Source: Eubacteriales bacterium
GTDB lineage: Bacteria; Bacillota; Clostridia; Oscillospirales; CAG-272
Assembly (NCBI GenBank): GCA_045646945.1
Contig: JAZRLS010000022.1
Coordinates: forward strand, 1,181-65,180
Length of the DNA stretch: 64,000 nucleotides
Direction: 5' to 3'
In this document: positions 2,575 through 16,948 of the stretch, one piece after another
Position numbering within the stretch: position 1 is the first letter of the stretch
How the letters are laid out: every line of letters starts with the position of its first letter
The notes under the pieces: generated by a model
Databases searched by the model: none
The model's input: only the letters and a program-made list of their open reading frames with translations
What the model was told of the DNA's origin: nothing
Position numbers and translations under genes: made by a program

Positions 2575-3251
2575 TGAAAGGACTTTTGTATAAAGATTTT
2601 TTGATGGCTTGGAAATATTGTAAGATGTATTTAGTAATTACGGTTGTATTTTTGGCATTATTCTTTTTCATTACGGATTCTTGGCTTTTTATTCTTTATC
2701 CGGGGATTCTCTTTGGTATGATTCCAATCAATCTTTTAGCGTATGACGAGCATAGTCGATGGAAAATTTTTTCTCAGACCTTGCCGTATTCCAAAGATAA
2801 GGTTGTTTCGGCAAAGTATTTGGTCGGATTGCTTCCAACGACGATTTTTTCGGTATTAGTTTCTCTTGTATATGGAATTTCAAGACAGATTGAAAATCAA
2901 TTTTCTTTCTCGGAACTGGGTGCTGTCTTATTCGTAGGATTCTTTTTACCGCTTCTTTTTTCTGCATTTTCTTTGCCGCTTGTTTTTCGGTTTGGCACAG
3001 AAAGGGGAAGAATGGTTTCTCTCATTGGTGTTGCCGCAGTTTGTGGTTTCACCTTTGCATACGGTGCTTTTCGAAAAGCTTCTTATACAATCTCGATGCC
3101 GACGATTACTCCCGCAATTCTTTGGATCATTGGCGCCATTATTCTTGCATTGTACGTACTCTCTTGGAAAATCTCTATCGCATTGTATCAAAAAAATACT
3201 TTCTATCCTGATAGAAGAAAATCGTGGAAAGAGATTTTAAAAAGGAAATAA
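2574..3251 (+). CDS. ABC-2 type transporter permease
   Basis: MKGLLYKD start, about 6 hydrophobic segments, LPYSK...VSAKY motif; coupled to ATPase gene. Confidence 0.85.
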   Translation: MKGLLYKDFLMAWKYCKMYLVITVVFLALFFFITDSWLFILYPGILFGMIPINLLAYDEHSRWKIFSQTLPYSKDKVVSAKYLVGLLPTTIFSVLVSLVYGISRQIENQFSFSELGAVLFVGFFLPLLFSAFSLPLVFRFGTERGRMVSLIGVAAVCGFTFAYGAFRKASYTISMPTITPAILWIIGAIILALYVLSWKISIALYQKNTFYPDRRKSWKEILKRK

Positions 3252-3256
3252 AGAAC

Positions 3257-3283
3257 AAGCCACGGAGTTTTGCTCCGTGGCTT
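3257..3283. terminator. Hairpin between convergent genes
   Basis: AAGCCACGGAG-ttttg-CTCCGTGGCTT. Confidence 0.75.
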
Positions 3284-3293
3284 TGGTGTTTGA

Positions 3294-4082
3294 TTAAAAG
3301 CTTTCCAGCGATTTATTGAGGAAAGCGCGGGTCAGAGGAGATTTTGGATTCTCGAAGAGCTCTTCGGGAGTACCGCGTTCTTCAATGACTCCGTTTGCCA
3401 TAAAGATAACCTCATCGGAAACGTTCTTCGCAAATTCCATCTCGTGTGTTACGACGATCATGGTACTGTCCGAAGATTTCAAGCTCTTGATGACTCGGAG
3501 AACCTCTCCCGTCAGCTCGGGGTCGAGTGCCGAAGTCGGTTCGTCAAAGCAGAGAATATCAGGGGAGAGGGCAAGCGCACGCGCGATTGCGACACGCTGC
3601 TGCTGACCGCCCGAAAGCTGACAGGGATAAAAATCCGCCTTATCGGTAAGTCCGACTTTTTCAAGAAGCTCCCAAGCTTTTTTCTTGATCTCTTCTTCTT
3701 TTGCTTTATGTTCTTCCTTCGTCAGTTTTTGCTCGGTCAGTCGCATTAGCGGAGCCAGCGTAATATTATCAAACGCCGTATACTGCGGGAAGAGATTGAA
3801 GGATTGAAACACAAGACCGAAATGTAAACGGTTTTGGCGGATTTCCGCTTCCTTCATTGCCTTATCCTTGGATGCGTCAAAAATCACCTTGCCGTCGATC
3901 GACATCGTTCCTACATCGGGTGTTTCCAAAAAATTCAGGCAACGGAGCAGGGTGGTTTTACCGCTTCCCGACGAACCGATGATCGAAAGGACGTTACCTT
4001 TTTCGAGAGAAAAATCAATTCCTTTCAAGACTTCGGTTTTTCCGAAGCTTTTTTTGATATTTAAAACTTCAAAAAACGCCAT
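3294..4082 (-). CDS. Polar amino acid ABC transporter ATP-binding protein
   Basis: [48 protein letters not shown]. Confidence 0.95.
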
Positions 4083-4084
4083 AG

Positions 4085-4774
4085 TTACACCTTAAAATAT
4101 CCCAATTTTTTCTCAAGCTTTCCAAGAAGGATGGTTAAGAGACCGTTGATCAGCAGGTAGAAGAGACCCGCATAGAAGATCGGCCACAAGATTGCCTTGG
4201 TATTGACGATACCCTTTGCCACCGTAAAGAGATCCAGTCGAATCACAACGCTGGCAAGAGCAGTATCCTTGACGAGCGTAATGATCTCATTGGACATCGG
4301 AGCGACGATGCGCTTGACTACCTGCAAGAAAATGACCTTAGAGAAGGTTTGCGATTTCGTCATACCAAGCACCTGCGCCGCCTCGTACTGACCTTGTGGA
4401 ACGCTTTGAATGCCTCCACGGTAGATCTCCGAAAAATAGCACGCATAGTTAATGCTGAAAGCCACGCAGACCATCGTCAGAAGCGCGACCTCACCACGCA
4501 GGGCAAGATCGATCGGAATTCCGATTGCCTGCATAATATTAGAAAAGCTTGTAGGGAGAAAGAGAAAGAAAATGATTTGAAGCATCAGAGGCGTTCCTCG
4601 GATGACCCAAACGAATGCACGGGTAATTGCGCTGATAATCTTGATTTTTGATTTAGAACCAAAGGCAATCAAAAGTCCAAGAGGGAGCGCGACAAGAAGT
4701 GTTACTCCAAAGATTAGAAGGGTATAAAGCAACCCTTCTAATAATTGGAGCGTAACATTGAAAAATAATGTCAT
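4085..4774 (-). CDS. Polar amino acid ABC transporter permease
   Basis: [28 protein letters not shown] (EAA loop), LVKDTAL. Confidence 0.93.
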
Positions 4775-4790
4775 GAGTAGATGCTAAGGA

Positions 4791-5645
4791 TTATTCTTCT
4801 TCTGCGATTTTTACGCAAGCCTCACCGGCAGAACCTGCTTCTGCACCGATGATAGCCTTGGACATCGAATCGAGATTGGTGTACTTATCCTTATCCTCAA
4901 CGCGAACAATTGCAACCTGCTTGTTGTTCAGATAGGGCATCGAAATTTCCATGTTTGCAAGTCTTTCCTCGGTAATGGTCATACCGTTCCAGATGCAGTC
5001 GATGGTCTTGTTGTTCAGGAGTGCTTCCTTTGCATCCCAGTCGATTTCCTTGAATTCTACTTCGACACCGAGGTAGTCAGCGACAGCCTCAGCGAGCTCA
5101 ATATCAAAGCCGATCAGTTTACCGGAATCATCCTTGTACGCGATAGGAGCAAAGATGGTGTAACCAACGATGAACTTGCCCTGCTCGAGGATGTAGTTCC
5201 AGTCCTCAAGTTCAGCTTCGGTGGGCTCTTCGATTTCCATATTTTCATCAATGCAAACTTCAGAAGCAATGCCGTACTTTTCCGCGATATCCTCAACAAT
5301 ACCTGCTTTGGTGAGCGAGATCAGAGCTGCGTTGATTGCCTTGGCCAGGGCACTGCCTTTTCTGGCAGCGATACCGTACTGTTCAGCCTCGAACTTGACG
5401 TCTTCAACGATCATCAGCTTATCCTTGTAATCAGAGTCGTCCTGATTCAGGTAATAGCCAGCCATAATGCTGTCCATTACGCCAACGTCAATCGACTTGG
5501 AGTTCAACTGAGCAAGAACGTCCATCTGGGCGGAGAGAGGGGTGTACTTCTTACCAAACTGGAGCTTTTCACCGCAAGAGGTGAAGGAAATGGATGCGCC
5601 AACCAGCATCAGCAGAGCGAGCGCAAGAGCGAGAATCTTTTTCAT
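4791..5645 (-). CDS. Amino acid ABC substrate-binding lipoprotein (family 3), circularly permuted
   Basis: Signal peptide with lipobox Cys24; GFDIELAEAVA, IDWD, IDCIWNGMTITEER and EQYGIAARKG motifs present but in swapped order. Confidence 0.88.
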   Translation of the reverse strand: MKKILALALALLMLVGASISFTSCGEKLQFGKKYTPLSAQMDVLAQLNSKSIDVGVMDSIMAGYYLNQDDSDYKDKLMIVEDVKFEAEQYGIAARKGSALAKAINAALISLTKAGIVEDIAEKYGIASEVCIDENMEIEEPTEAELEDWNYILEQGKFIVGYTIFAPIAYKDDSGKLIGFDIELAEAVADYLGVEVEFKEIDWDAKEALLNNKTIDCIWNGMTITEERLANMEISMPYLNNKQVAIVRVEDKDKYTNLDSMSKAIIGAEAGSAGEACVKIAEEE

Positions 5646-5708
5646 AAAAATACCTCCCGACCGTGATGATTACGGTCATAAAATAAAAATGTTTTTCAAA
5701 GAGAAAGC

Positions 5709-5770
5709 CACTTTAGTGCTTTACTTTGATAAAGTATTATAATCATACCACAAAACCTTTCGTTTGTCAA
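5709..5770 (-). promoter_or_regulatory. sigma-A promoter with HisR-like operator at the transcription start
   Basis: Minus strand TTGACA(5770-5765)-17 bp-TATGAT(5747-5742); CACTTTAG-tg-CTTTA-ctttga-TAAAGTA at 5709-5736. Confidence 0.65.
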
Positions 5771-5926
5771 GTCTTTTTTTATTTTTTATATAAATTATGT
5801 ATAACATAAAATTATGTCGAAAATTTTTAATCGGTAATGTCGCTTTTTTCTTTTTTGTTCTTGAAAAGAGGAGGGAAGTATGCTATAATAAAAATGTAAA
5901 ACCTATTGAACTTGTGAGGTGAAAAT

Positions 5927-7600
5927 ATGGATTATCAAGCAAAATATCAACATTGGTTTGAAAACGCAGATATGGCAACAAAGGCAGAGCTTGCCGACAT
6001 TGCAGGAAATGACAAAGAGATCAAGGAGCGATTTTTCTGTGATCTTGCCTTTGGAACGGGCGGTTTGCGCGGTGTGATTGGCGCGGGAACCAACCGTATG
6101 AACAAGTACATCATTCGAAAAACGACGCAGGGCTATGCCGAATACGTGAAGAAAGCAGGTGCTGAGGCTTGCCGTCGAGGAGTGGTAATTGCCCATGATA
6201 ACCGTCGTTTTAGTATTGAATTTGCCGCAGAAACGGCAGGCGTACTTGCCGCAAACGGCATTCGGGCATATCTGTTTGATTCGCTTCGTCCTACGCCGGA
6301 GCTTTCGTTCTCGGTCAGAGAACTTGGAGCCTTTGGCGGTGTTATGATTACGGCGTCGCACAATCCACCAGAATATAATGGCTATAAACTTTATGATGAG
6401 CGCGGATGCCAGTTGGTTCCTGATGTCAATGATGAGGTTGTGGCAGAGATTGAGCGTATTGCCGATCCGTTGACAGTGAAATCCCTCTCCAAAGAAGAAG
6501 CTGGGGCTTTGATTCTTACAGTCGATCCTGCGATTGATGAAACCTACTATAATGCTGTCATGAAGATCACGCTCAATAACGATCTTGACAAGAGTGACGT
6601 GAAAATTGTATATTCTCCTCAGCACGGAACGGGTAATGTTCCCGTAAGAACCGTTCTTTCTCGCTTGGGATATCATGTAATTCCCGTAGAAGAGCAGTGT
6701 GTTCCCGATACTGAGTTTTCCAAAACGCTCAATCCGAACCCTGAAGTAGCTGATGCTTACGTTCTTGCATTGGAATATGCCAACAAGGCAAACGCAGATA
6801 TCGTAATTACGACCGACCCTGACTGTGACCGCTTGGGCGTTGCCGTGAAGCACAACGGAGAATATATTCGTATGACGGGAAATCAATCTGCGGCAGTTCT
6901 TCTGGAATACATTCTTTCTCAAAAATCGGAGATGGGAACGCTTCCGGCAAATGGTGTAATGTTTAATACGATCGTTACATCGGATCTAGGTGACCGTATT
7001 TGTGAAAACTACGGTGTGAGCGTAGAGAAGACGTTGACGGGCTTTAAGTTTATCGGCGATAAGGTTTATCGTCACGAATTGAAGGGCGATAAGACTTTTG
7101 TCTTCGGATATGAGGAAAGCTACGGCTGTCTGATTTCCGACTGCGTTCGCGATAAGGATGCGGTGCAGGCTTCCTTGATGCTTTGTGAAGCAACCGTATA
7201 TTATCATAAGCTTGGTATGACGTTGATTGACGCGCTGCAAGCACTTTATAAGAAATATGGCTTCTATCGTGACGCTTTGGATAACTTTACCTTTAAGGGA
7301 CTTGACGGAGCAGAAAAAATTAAGGCGTTGGTGAACGGACTTCGCAAAGCACCGCCTTCCAAGGCAGGCAACATAGCGGTTCTGAAGATGGAGGACTATG
7401 CTTCTAAGGAAATGATGGATGCGGGATTTCCGTCTTCCGACGTTCTTCGCTTTGTTCTTGCCGACGGTAGCTGGGTTGCTGTTCGTCCGAGCGGTACGGA
7501 ACCGAAGTGTAAGTTCTATTTCAGCGTGGTTGCTCCCACGCCCACCGAAGCGGACGCAAAGCTTGCGGTCATGAGAGAAACCTTTGAAAAGGATTGCTAA
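5927..7600 (+). CDS. pgm: Phosphoglucomutase / phospho-sugar mutase
   Basis: FGTGGLRG, ITASHNP (catalytic Ser), DPDCDR metal loop, GYEES, RPSGTEPK. Confidence 0.93.
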   Translation: MDYQAKYQHWFENADMATKAELADIAGNDKEIKERFFCDLAFGTGGLRGVIGAGTNRMNKYIIRKTTQGYAEYVKKAGAEACRRGVVIAHDNRRFSIEFAAETAGVLAANGIRAYLFDSLRPTPELSFSVRELGAFGGVMITASHNPPEYNGYKLYDERGCQLVPDVNDEVVAEIERIADPLTVKSLSKEEAGALILTVDPAIDETYYNAVMKITLNNDLDKSDVKIVYSPQHGTGNVPVRTVLSRLGYHVIPVEEQCVPDTEFSKTLNPNPEVADAYVLALEYANKANADIVITTDPDCDRLGVAVKHNGEYIRMTGNQSAAVLLEYILSQKSEMGTLPANGVMFNTIVTSDLGDRICENYGVSVEKTLTGFKFIGDKVYRHELKGDKTFVFGYEESYGCLISDCVRDKDAVQASLMLCEATVYYHKLGMTLIDALQALYKKYGFYRDALDNFTFKGLDGAEKIKALVNGLRKAPPSKAGNIAVLKMEDYASKEMMDAGFPSSDVLRFVLADGSWVAVRPSGTEPKCKFYFSVVAPTPTEADAKLAVMRETFEKDC

Positions 7601-14650: not shown

Positions 14651-15475
14651 ATGAAAAAGATTCTTGCTTTAGTTTTGGCTTTGCTTCTGATTATGATCGG
14701 ATGCGTTGCATGCGCCGGAACCGAGGATACGGCCGATGATACGTCCGAAACCACCACGGCTCCCGCTGATGACAATAATGACGGTGATGACAACAAGGAA
14801 AAGCCTGTATTGAAGATGGCAACCAATGCATACTTCCAGCCCTATGAATTCTACAAGGATGGAAAGATCGTTGGTATCGATGCTGAAATCGCGGCTGCTA
14901 TTGCCGAGTATATGGGATATGAGCTCCAGATCGTAGATATGGAATTTGATTCCATTATCACTGCGGTCAAGGAAGGTTCCGTTGACTTCGGTATGGCGGG
15001 TATGACCGTTACCGAGAAGAGACTCCTTGAGATCGACTTCTCCAACAGCTATGCAACCGGTGTTCAGTCGATTATCGTGCCTGAAAATTCTCCTATTACC
15101 CATGTTGATGACCTGTATGCTGCTGGCGCAAACTACAAGGTTGGTGTTCAGCGCGGTACGACCGGTGACATTTATGCAACCGATGATTTCGGAGCAGAGA
15201 AGGTAACAACCTACGATAACGGTAACGGTGCGGTTCTTGCGCTGCTTGGCGGTGACGTTGATTGCGTAATTATCGACAATGAGCCTGCAAAGGCACTGGT
15301 AAACGCAAATGATGGTTTGAAGATTCTGGAGACCTCTTACGCAGATGAGGACTACGCAATCTGCATTAAGAAGGGAAATTCCGCACTGCTTGAGAAGATC
15401 AACGAAGCAATCGTTGCTCTGACGGCAGACGGAACGATTGACGAAATCGTTGCAAAGTATATTCCCGCAGAATAA
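14651..15475 (+). CDS. Polar amino acid ABC substrate-binding lipoprotein
   Basis: Lipoprotein signal, acidic linker, MATNAYFQPYEF, GIDAEIA, AGMTVTEKR, VGVQRGTTG, EDYAI in canonical order. Confidence 0.92.
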   Translation: MKKILALVLALLLIMIGCVACAGTEDTADDTSETTTAPADDNNDGDDNKEKPVLKMATNAYFQPYEFYKDGKIVGIDAEIAAAIAEYMGYELQIVDMEFDSIITAVKEGSVDFGMAGMTVTEKRLLEIDFSNSYATGVQSIIVPENSPITHVDDLYAAGANYKVGVQRGTTGDIYATDDFGAEKVTTYDNGNGAVLALLGGDVDCVIIDNEPAKALVNANDGLKILETSYADEDYAICIKKGNSALLEKINEAIVALTADGTIDEIVAKYIPAE

Positions 15476-15499: not shown

Positions 15500-15539
15500 G
15501 CAAAAAAATAGGAACGTTTCGACTTTCCTATTTTTTTGC
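15500..15539 (+). terminator. Intra-operon hairpin after binding-protein gene
   Basis: GCAAAAAAATAGGAA...TTCCTATTTTTTTGC; may tune binding protein excess over permease. Confidence 0.55.
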
Positions 15540-15559
15540 CGTTTAGGAAGGCATTTTTT

Positions 15560-16948
15560 ATGAAACAAAATAAACACCTTCGCAATTTTTTGATTGCTCT
15601 GATTGCTGTTGTGGTTTTGGTAGGTGTGTTTGCAACGATCATCTTGATCGATGGACTCAACAACCGTGCAAAGCAGGAAATAGATATTGCGCAGGCACAA
15701 GAAATGGTCGATGCTACGTTGGATTCTTTACCAAACAATGTGGCACTATCCTCAAAGTATATTCGTTCTCGCAGTGGTGTCACGGTCAATGACATTAAAT
15801 ATGGCACGCAGAAGGATATCATTTTGAGCTGTACTTATGAAACGATTGACGTTCGTACTACCATCGAGGAGAATGTCAACGATGTTTTGGGAAGCATATC
15901 GATCAATGACCCGAAAACGGGAAAGCCCAAAAACGCAACCAAGGTTCAGCTTGAGGTTGCGGATAAAATCCAAGATTTGTTGGAAAATGCTCCCACGTTA
16001 AGTGGTGAGATGGATGTTTATATTTATGAAACCAAAGAAGGACTGCAACTCTATCTTGCGGATGAGTTTGTTAATACGGCTTTCGGTGGAATTCTTGATG
16101 CTCAAAAGGTGGTACAAAATACTACCACGTTAACGGTGAACGGTGAGAGCGTAGATATTACCAACCGAAATTCGCTTCGCAATGGTTGTATCGCTTGCTT
16201 TAAACTCGTGAACTACGACATGACAAAACCCGATACATCCTCTAAGATACAGCGTGCCTTCAATGAGTTTAAAGAGGAATTTCACAGAAACTTTATTGAA
16301 GAAAACCGTTGGACTTATTTGGCACAGGGACTTGGAAACACGCTTGCAATTACAGCACTTGCTTTGATTCTTGGTGTCGCTATCGGTTTCCTTGTTGCTG
16401 CAATTCGTTGTACCAGTGCAAAAACGGGTAAATTGAAGATTTTGGACGGTATCTGTAAGGTGTATCTTGCCATCATGCGCGGAACCCCCGTTATGATACA
16501 GCTTCTGATTATTTATTTCGTTATTTTGCTTCCGTTGAACGTGGATAAATTCGTTGCGGCGGTGCTTTGCTTTGGTATCAACTCGGGTGCTTATGTTTCC
16601 GAAATCGTGCGCGGCGGTATTATGTCAATCGATGACGGTCAGATTGAGGCGGGTAGAAGCTTAGGGCTTGGATACGTTCCTACGATGTGGCATATTGTCA
16701 TTCCTCAGGCATTTAAGGCGATTTTGCCGTCGCTTGCGAATGAGTTTATCGCACTCTTGAAAGAAACGTCTGTTGCATTCTATATCGGTGTAGCAGACTT
16801 GACACTCGGTGGATTGAAGATTCGTGCCATTACGTACAGTAACTTTATGCCTTTGATTGCGATTGCCGTAATTTATTTGATTTTGGTGCTTGGCTTGTCG
16901 TATCTGGTATCGCTTTTGGAAAGGAGGTTGCGTAAGAGTGAGAAGTAA
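15560..16948 (+). CDS. Polar amino acid ABC permease with long N-terminal extracellular domain
   Basis: C-terminal about 210 aa has [37 protein letters not shown]; N-terminal TM plus about 220 aa soluble region. Confidence 0.9.

Follow-up and report, generated by a model that had tools for sequence, protein, structure and literature searches.

The best-described relatives of the protein considered here are the canonical cluster F substrate-binding proteins represented by 3HV1 (Streptococcus thermophilus), 4OHN (S. pneumoniae, with histidine), AncQR (4ZV1) and TmArgBP. These proteins share with ours the Pfam family, the sequence motifs and the type of operon, they are also found as lipoproteins in Gram-positive bacteria, and they are 36-49% identical to it over the lobe 1 piece. 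They differ from it in the order in which the parts of the chain are encoded. Compared with the canonical cluster F binders, ours has the C-terminal 100 residues first, the old termini joined by a linker, and the predicted lipid anchor on lobe 2.

A natural precedent for a permuted ABC-type binding lipoprotein is TpMglB-2 (Tp0684) of Treponema pallidum, for which the designation "Type Ic / Cluster Bc" has been proposed to denote a type I fold in which the first three strands of the N-lobe are relocated to the C-terminus (PMC4990184). TpMglB-2 still binds its ligand and closes on it, and its authors raise tethering as a possible reason for the rearrangement (PMC4990184). Our protein resembles TpMglB-2 as a permuted tethered binder, yet lies outside "Type Ic / Cluster Bc": TpMglB-2 is a type I, cluster B sugar binder from another Pfam family (PMC4990184), whereas ours is predicted to be of type II, with matches only to SBP_bac_3 and related type II families and none to the Peripla_BP family. 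A single cut site is represented by TpMglB-2, the permuted part of which is 13% identical to the canonical sequence, and the accessible part of that report describes neither a series of cut sites nor intermediates (PMC4990184).

Other precedents bear on the fold and on the route by which it might be permuted. Permutation relations among type II folds were detected with CPSARST for the OpuAC/ProX betaine binders, the molybdate binders and CysB, and these cases indicate, as ours would, that nature tolerates a permuted type II binding fold; in the accessible portion of that work the relations are below 24% identity and apparent from structure only (PMC2395249), whereas in our case permuted and canonical proteins are 50-65% identical and the steps are extant. 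GlnPQ carries tandem family 3 substrate-binding domains, head to tail and with short linkers, and so represents the type of precursor needed by a duplication model; the protein P0143 discussed below is such a two-domain permease fusion. As far as the accessible text on GlnPQ describes them, its domains are complete, in canonical order and untrimmed, unlike ours (PMC8025302). Permutation by duplication with natural intermediates is described for the DNA methyltransferases and for saposin/swaposin, where duplicated, half-trimmed and several permuted forms coexist, as they do here (PMC3320104). Those are other families, and the lipoproteins have the added constraint that none of the steps may cost them the signal peptide.

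Few natural examples of circular permutation by duplication, a textbook model, have preserved their intermediate steps. Within the literature covered, from which subscription journals and supplements are excluded, we found no paper on natural circular permutation in SBP_bac_3 amino-acid binders. What is new, judging from the predicted proteins, is the occurrence in family 3 binders of four permutation classes beside tandem and partly redundant forms. The transport job of such a protein is ordinary and its evolutionary history is unusual. Because canonical, tandem, half-trimmed and four permuted forms are available in one well-studied fold, the duplication model becomes testable stepwise on real sequences.

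Order and predicted fold of the exchanged halves

The window analysed here is a stretch of 64,000 nucleotides of contig JAZRLS010000022.1, from the draft genome of a Eubacteriales bacterium in 68 contigs (GCA_045646945.1). The ORF at 4791-5645 on the reverse strand starts with ATG and encodes a protein of 284 amino acids that matches Pfam SBP_bac_3 (PF00497) with 102.8 bits against a gathering cut-off of 26.4 (E 1.5e-29), the match being divided into two stretches. The original prediction held that the two halves of the protein are swapped, and the alignments that follow have this pattern. Against 3hv1, residues 145-275 of the query correspond to residues 10-139 and residues 35-131 to residues 159-252, and the alignments with 4zv1 and 4ohn are swapped in the same way. 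Against the paralog encoded at 14651-15475, residues 165-275 align with 62-173 (2e-10) and residues 74-124 with 220-270 (2e-6). On an HMM in canonical order, constructed from 49 relatives, residues 32-130 fall on positions 169-265 and residues 144-279 on positions 26-161. Two HMM matches in swapped order had been predicted and were found; a single colinear match, the outcome named beforehand as refuting, was absent for the permuted protein and present for the paralog (54-271), which agrees with the canonical order that had been ascribed to the latter.

The two segments are thus exchanged, the old termini are joined and nothing is lost, with sameness of the fold resting on prediction. The ORF at 4791-5645 is confirmed as a real, conserved circular permutant of a family 3 amino-acid-binding lipoprotein and is, to judge from its family matches, a topological variant within SBP_bac_3 and not a separate family. 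The linker had been described as an acidic stretch at residues 127-147; it does join the old C-terminus to the old N-terminus, but we place its end at about residue 142 (extent ~127-142), since an AlphaFold2 (AF2) helix occupies residues 143-155, a stretch that in the alignment also precedes the first strand of canonical relatives. The parts of the protein are listed in Table 1 together with the other features of the operon.

Table 1. Features of the permuted gene and its operon (window coordinates)
Feature	Position	Strand	Remarks
Promoter-like site	5742..5770	-	TTGACA, 17 nt, TATGAT, with TG ahead of the second hexamer; 11/12 matches; consensus match only
Ribosome-binding site GGGAGG	5653..5658	-	7 nt ahead of ATG; read off the sequence
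Signal peptide and lipobox, residues 1-24 (FTSC, Cys24)	5574..5645	-	homologue alignment; AF2 helix 2-22
Lobe 2, second part, residues 25-81, holds Asp58	5403..5573	-	normally behind canonical ~168; HMM 169 onward
Hinge 2 and C-terminal piece of lobe 1, residues 82-126	5268..5402	-	normally the protein end; AF2 E87-95, H100-113, H116-123
Linker from old C-terminus to old N-terminus, residues 127-142, invariant Cys131	5220..5267	-	alignment; pLDDT 93-96
N-terminal helix, N-terminal piece of lobe 1 and hinge-crossing strand, residues 143-248	4902..5219	-	GMTITEER with Arg228; AF2 H143-155 to E239-248
Lobe 2, first part, and stop, residues 249-284	4791..4901	-	GAEAGSAG; short C-terminal helix with Cys277; ends at HMM 161
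ABC permease gene, 229 aa	4085..4774	-	sole permease gene of the operon
ABC ATPase gene, 262 aa	3294..4082	-	third gene of the operon
Terminator-like hairpin behind the ATPase gene	3257..3283	-	11 pairs, 7 G-C; consensus match only

The AF2 model, computed with the alignment A1 described below, has a pLDDT of 91.5 and a pTM of 0.82, to be read with the reservation that AF2 may lean toward the common fold of the family; the linker is modelled with similar confidence (Table 1). In this model an 8-residue tether precedes the last strand-helix-strand-helix-strand unit of lobe 2 at residues 33-79 (E33-37, H40-48, E54-58, H59-67, E77-79), lobe 1 comprises residues 157-234, the hinge-crossing strand residues 239-248, and the start of lobe 2 closes with a short helix at 273-278. 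The new termini had been predicted to lie in the second lobe, and the model puts them there, in the loop between the helix behind the GSAG motif and the next strand. The chain would start in this surface loop of lobe 2, reach the old C-terminal piece of lobe 1 by way of hinge 2, follow a linker of ~16 residues to the old N-terminal helix, and then run through lobe 1 and hinge 1 to end in lobe 2 beside its start. The only physical change from the canonical arrangement would be a lipid anchor on lobe 2 instead of lobe 1.

Sequential structure aligners superimposed model residues 143-242 on canonical binders with an rmsd of 1.1-1.5 A over 93-98 residues (Z ~11), and VIA-align gave Z values of 9-12 against canonical proteins over 143-242 or 145-282, the sequential alignment spanning at most ~140 residues. 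The whole model in its permuted order was matched by no chain among those compared with the sequential aligners. Long colinear Foldseek matches to OpuAC, PstS and HisG-like proteins, with TM scores of 0.34-0.44 and rmsd values of 7-12 A, were set aside as uninformative on order. The top VIA-align row was the Venus-flytrap protein PfVFT1 of Plasmodium falciparum (5jkq_B; Z 12.3, 181 residues, rmsd 4.4), the alignment of which is colinear through the linker, from model residue 96 to 283.

The permuted order recurs in close homologues. A word-indexed search listed 120 homologue clusters from Clostridia and Ruminococcaceae MAGs, with 62-100% identity to the permuted protein and 88-100% query coverage, and the swapped order (class A, see below) was found in 120/120 of the clusters listed. 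The NCBI name of these clusters is only "transporter substrate-binding domain-containing protein", and it is through the use of this generic name in annotation pipelines that the permuted topology goes unnoticed. A profile built from 42 homologues of the permuted protein (A1) gave full-length matches in four genomes besides its own (G037, G183, G083 and G029) among 201 genomes of the same family. A contig of 7171 nt from an independent gut metagenome run (X4) is colinear with the window over 4530-5779, with 134 differing letters and 6 gaps.

Cut-site classes, intermediate forms and distribution

A HMMER search with A1 among 1.84 billion representatives gave 489 hits at 1e-30, and the best 150 of these (50%-identity representatives) were classified with the canonical-order HMM into the forms of Table 2. 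The break points of the four permuted classes lie near canonical positions 54 (D), 131 (C), 162 (A, which includes ours) and 205 (B). The join between the old C-terminus and the old N-terminus is common to all four classes, and only the position of the cut differs. Such natural cut sites show where the fold tolerates new ends, namely behind strand 1, behind the hinge strand, behind the GSAG helix and ahead of the last strand of lobe 2, and are useful for building sensors from binding proteins. The search for homologues with the same permutation and for tandem forms, which had been proposed as a check, has thus yielded both: the 120 class A clusters and 10 tandem arrays in the best 150.

Table 2. 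Forms among the best 150 of 489 hits
Form	Representatives	Lipobox and Met start	C-termini (HMM positions)	Location of the cut
Canonical	51			
Class A (ours)	28	24/28	160-163	behind the helix following GSAG
Class D	21	18/21	51-57	loop behind strand 1
Class C	10	7/10	126-145	behind the hinge-crossing strand
Class B	9	8/9	203-206	ahead of the last strand of lobe 2
Tandem arrays, 2-8 domains	10			
Canonical with an extra piece	3			
Redundant	3			
Partial	11			
Other	4			

Part of lobe 2 is present at both ends of the proteins P0163 (333 aa) and P0189 (344 aa, with a lipobox). These appear to be the half-trimmed forms expected under the duplication model (PMC3320104) and support it indirectly; both are single metagenome predictions, and the tail of P0189 appears frameshifted.

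P0189 and P0220 can also be described as class C-like proteins of ~343 aa with an extra C-terminal stretch, which in P0189 resembles the start of lobe 2 and then continues seemingly out of frame, like a decaying redundant copy. Four multi-domain proteins (P0121, P0122, P0124 and P0125) are arrays of 3 to 8 complete family 3 domains that end in a hydrophobic segment of ~20 residues with the appearance of a C-terminal membrane anchor; P0121, at 2001 aa, is open at its N-end. P0143 and P0236 are multi-domain fusions to a permease. The notion that permuted forms are held nearer to the membrane was dropped, as there is no clear difference: between the lipobox Cys and the residue aligned first (HMM position 27 in canonical forms) the median distance is 6.5 in class A, 2 in D, 4 in B and 9 in C, versus 5 in canonical forms.

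The distribution of the join itself was traced with a profile of 97 positions built from 16 loci (A2), of which canonical genes match only the first 55-65 positions before they hit their own stop codon. A match that spans the join without a stop codon was found in 33 of the 201 genomes of the family, representing 23 of its 97 genera. Class A accounts for 5 of these genomes, classes D and C for 1 each, and the other 26 have a class-B-like match pattern; all 9 of the 26 that were checked by sequence are class B. Beyond the family, at least 27 genomes from 13 other families had the join in a class-wide sample of 401, and a phylum-wide sample of 401 had it in 2 genomes of other classes, with 5 genomes matching in all.

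Trees, locus history and origin of the permutation

For phylogenetic analysis the permuted proteins were reordered by script into canonical order with their linkers omitted, which gave 179 rows; in 172 of these, 205 or more columns were filled. The tree first computed with FastTree from all 179 rows was too poorly resolved to be used alone and was replaced by an IQ-TREE quick search on 80 rows of 50%-identity representatives (A 16, B 12, C 8, D 14, canonical 22, tandem domains 8), in which the named loci were kept and the remainder chosen at random. In the IQ-TREE tree our protein falls, with 99% support, in a clade that also includes P0127, a protein of class D, and a further two rows of class A; a second clade, with 98% support, unites one row of class B with two of class C and two in canonical order. 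The well-supported branches on their own require no fewer than 2 changes each for A and D and 3 each for B and C. The AU tests, which were run after the FastTree tree had been viewed, reject a single clade for A (p 0.003), for D (1.7e-4), for B (1e-67) and for all permuted rows together (3e-57). A single origin of the permuted forms is rejected on this evidence, which supports a history in which permutation would have been recurrent in Clostridia, with switches from class to class.

The class D protein P0127 might exemplify such a switch. It is 64.5% identical to ours over 228 columns, as near as many members of class A, and is an exact cyclic rotation of it: the signal peptide is 62% identical, the linker is the same, and the internal stretch that extends over our cut site consists of our C-terminal tail followed by our N-terminus. 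Its predicted fold has a pLDDT of 89.7. Class switches thus appear to occur among proteins that are still ~64% identical. The canonical protein P0150 is 52% identical to ours (225-228 columns), and the tandem arrays are 38-41% identical, so the arrays that we found are not its direct parents. One class B clade adjoins the two-domain proteins P0142 and P0143 (94% support), and the linkers differ among subgroups.

The course of events that we envisage begins with an in-frame duplication of the mature part behind the signal peptide, after which both ends would be trimmed, one by a deletion behind the signal peptide and the other by a new stop codon. Repetition of these steps in Clostridia would give rise to the four cut-site classes and to the switches between them. 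This combination of duplication, deletion and new stop would fit the retention of the signal peptide while the mature part rotates; since the signal peptide is kept, the 5' loss would be an in-frame deletion behind it and not a plain truncation. The origin from a tandem two-domain gene that had been proposed at the outset finds indirect support in the 10 arrays, in the redundant proteins P0163 and P0189 and in the C-to-N join common to the four classes. The pattern in the family supports repeated permutation by duplication, and we infer the same path for the ORF at 4791-5645 itself.

The immediate surroundings of the gene also bear on its history. At the syntenic locus (L019) of the congener G124 there is a canonical-order gene of 295 aa, flanked by counterparts of our ATPase gene (78% identity), on the other side of our phosphoglucomutase-like gene (73%) and, farther on, of dxs (77%). 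At the nucleotide level the window resembles G124 over 3310-4453 and 5960-7533 and loses this resemblance in the interval separating the two stretches. The middle segment (4453-5950), which contains the binding-protein gene, the promoter and the 5' two thirds of the permease gene, is colinear at 67% with an operon of another congener, G037 (L021), that has neither the phosphoglucomutase-like gene nor dxs within the 9 kb examined. These relationships suggest that 4453-5950 might be a replaced cassette in which the binding protein is combined with the permease's outer part.

Recombination at this site could also be invoked to explain the permutation itself, as the product of fission and fusion, or of an exchange between paralogs or with a multi-domain array, in place of a duplication of the gene's own mature part. 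The canonical-order gene at the G124 locus and the swapped-in look of the binding-protein gene and the 5' two thirds of its permease indicate that recombination has been active here, and ready-made C-to-N joins could be taken from the arrays, which have as many as 8 domains. We nevertheless hold such an origin to be improbable: both halves of the protein share their nearest relatives, in both orders (P0127 at 64.5% and P0150 at 52%), the possession by P0127 of the same signal peptide and linker fits the re-cutting of a duplicated mature part, and the arrays are just 38-41% identical to ours. Duplication and trimming is the reading that we prefer, and there is a strong probability that the protein is a lipid-anchored type II (cluster F, SBP_bac_3) binding subunit of a PAAT importer that was circularly permuted via duplication, in a process recurrent in Clostridia.

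Binding residues, operon and function

In a family 3 protein the alpha-amino and alpha-carboxyl groups of the bound amino acid are held by an Arg and a Thr in the lobe 1 motif, by Gly-Ser in lobe 2 and by an Asp after the last strand of lobe 2. In the 42 aligned homologues, which are 63-91% identical to the permuted protein, the residues D58, G221, R228, A268, E269, G271, S272, A273 and G274 are invariant, as are C24, C131 and C217, and T223 is nearly so. R228, G221, S272, D58 and T223 align with the corresponding residues of AncQR, 3hv1 and 4ohn, and the motif GMTITEER is identical in AncQR 4zv1, a structure with Arg or Gln bound. We take D58, G221, R228 and the positions of GAEAGSAG to be holders of the amino-acid backbone, as in GlnBP/LAO. 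The best-scoring family models, for binders of Lys/Arg/Orn, cystine and glutamine, fall well short of their cut-offs. Residues 1-24 end in a lipobox, by which lipidation is predicted, with Cys24 invariant in 42/42 homologues and S23 nearly so. Because both hinges and the backbone-binding residues are in place, the amino acid is expected to be bound by closure of the two lobes and handed to the permease as in canonical relatives; it is in this sense that we infer a ligand, binding, transport and lipidation for the permuted protein.

The operon consists of genes for a binding protein, one permease and one ATPase, all on the same strand and tightly spaced, with gaps of 16-17 nt between the binding-protein and permease genes and 2-3 nt between the permease and ATPase genes. 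The genome contains only two SBP_bac_3 genes, each adjoining its own transporter genes, which leaves the permuted protein as the sole candidate to serve its transporter. With the GGGAGG site, the lipobox Cys24, the downstream permease and ATPase genes and the promoter-like and terminator-like sites, the intact ribosome-binding site, signal peptide and operon of the original prediction are all accounted for, and its statement that the gene looks functional agrees with these expression signals, the invariant Cys24, the intact operon and the conservation of the family. On these grounds the ORF at 4791-5645 very probably encodes a functional protein, which would serve a PAAT-type ABC importer of polar amino acids as its binding subunit.

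Some observations concern transcription. An RNA library (X7) yielded a 151-nt contig identical to the window over 4750-4900, which is a weak hint of transcription, as an RNA library can contain DNA. None of the sequencing runs contains more than 0.11 of the sampled words, and X1, X2 and X7 cover the stretch only partly. A 6-bp hairpin (GACCGT ... ACGGTC, 5659-5677, reverse strand) abuts the ribosome-binding site of the permuted gene. An Rfam scan of 3000-6200 at E values up to 0.1 gave no matches, the hairpin included, and hence no known leader RNA in that interval.

The protein might have left transporter service to become a sensor or an adhesin, and roles do differ among family 3 proteins: a kinase sensor domain, MltF and an adhesin/binding protein all appear in the NCBIfam list. 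This is very improbable, considering that the gene stands in a tight operon with permease and ATPase genes, that the order binding protein, permease, ATPase is retained in loci of classes A, B, C and D, with a permease orthologue behind the permuted gene in 13 of 16 loci (L001-L014, L017 and L018; the other three are short stretches), and that no other domain was found with Pfam or NCBIfam. Slightly less credible still would be a decaying, non-working remnant of a tandem protein, for which the partly redundant and apparently frameshifted relatives (P0189) might be cited as examples. Against decay, every canonical element is present, the C-terminal tail and the N-terminus together amount to 25 residues versus 20 in canonical P0150 and 22 in P0127 over the corresponding stretch, many positions are invariant across the 42 homologues, the gene is the sole binding-protein gene adjoining the transporter, and the fold is predicted with confidence. 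An assembly or gene-calling artefact, in which a collapsed tandem repeat or a chimeric contig gave a false permuted frame, hardly merits belief even though the genome that contains the window is a draft in 68 contigs and tandem arrays of the SBP_bac_3 domain exist, since the misassembly that the original prediction had named as refuting was not seen: the order is identical in every one of the 120 clusters listed, which stem from several sources, in four additional genomes of the same family and in the colinear X4 contig, and the frame is bounded by a ribosome-binding site and lipobox signal peptide on one side and by a stop followed by the permease gene on the other.

With the protein regarded as a working binding subunit, one pair of conserved residues might be related to its new topology. 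Cys131 in the linker (5253-5255, reverse strand) and Cys277 in the new C-terminal helix (4815-4817, reverse strand) co-occur in 114/120 of the close homologues; among 139 diverse relatives, which include kin that are not independent, both are present in 9, one only in 8 and neither in 122. The AF2 model has isolated bridge residues at 28 and 130. The two cysteines could possibly form a disulfide staple. A wider and tentative proposal, which we think unlikely to hold in full, is that in Clostridia a small number of permitted loops serve over and over as cut sites for family 3 lipoproteins, via fused duplicates, that the cut is not neutral and sets the anchor-bearing lobe and face and thereby presentation to a homodimeric permease, that binding protein and permease would be suited to each other and travel jointly as a cassette, as the swapped segment 4453-5950 suggests, and that in our clade the Cys131-Cys277 staple would fasten the new C-terminal end to the linker.

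The permease of the paralog's operon (15536-16948, forward strand) has 470 aa, with an N-terminal extension of ~250 residues before the usual permease core.
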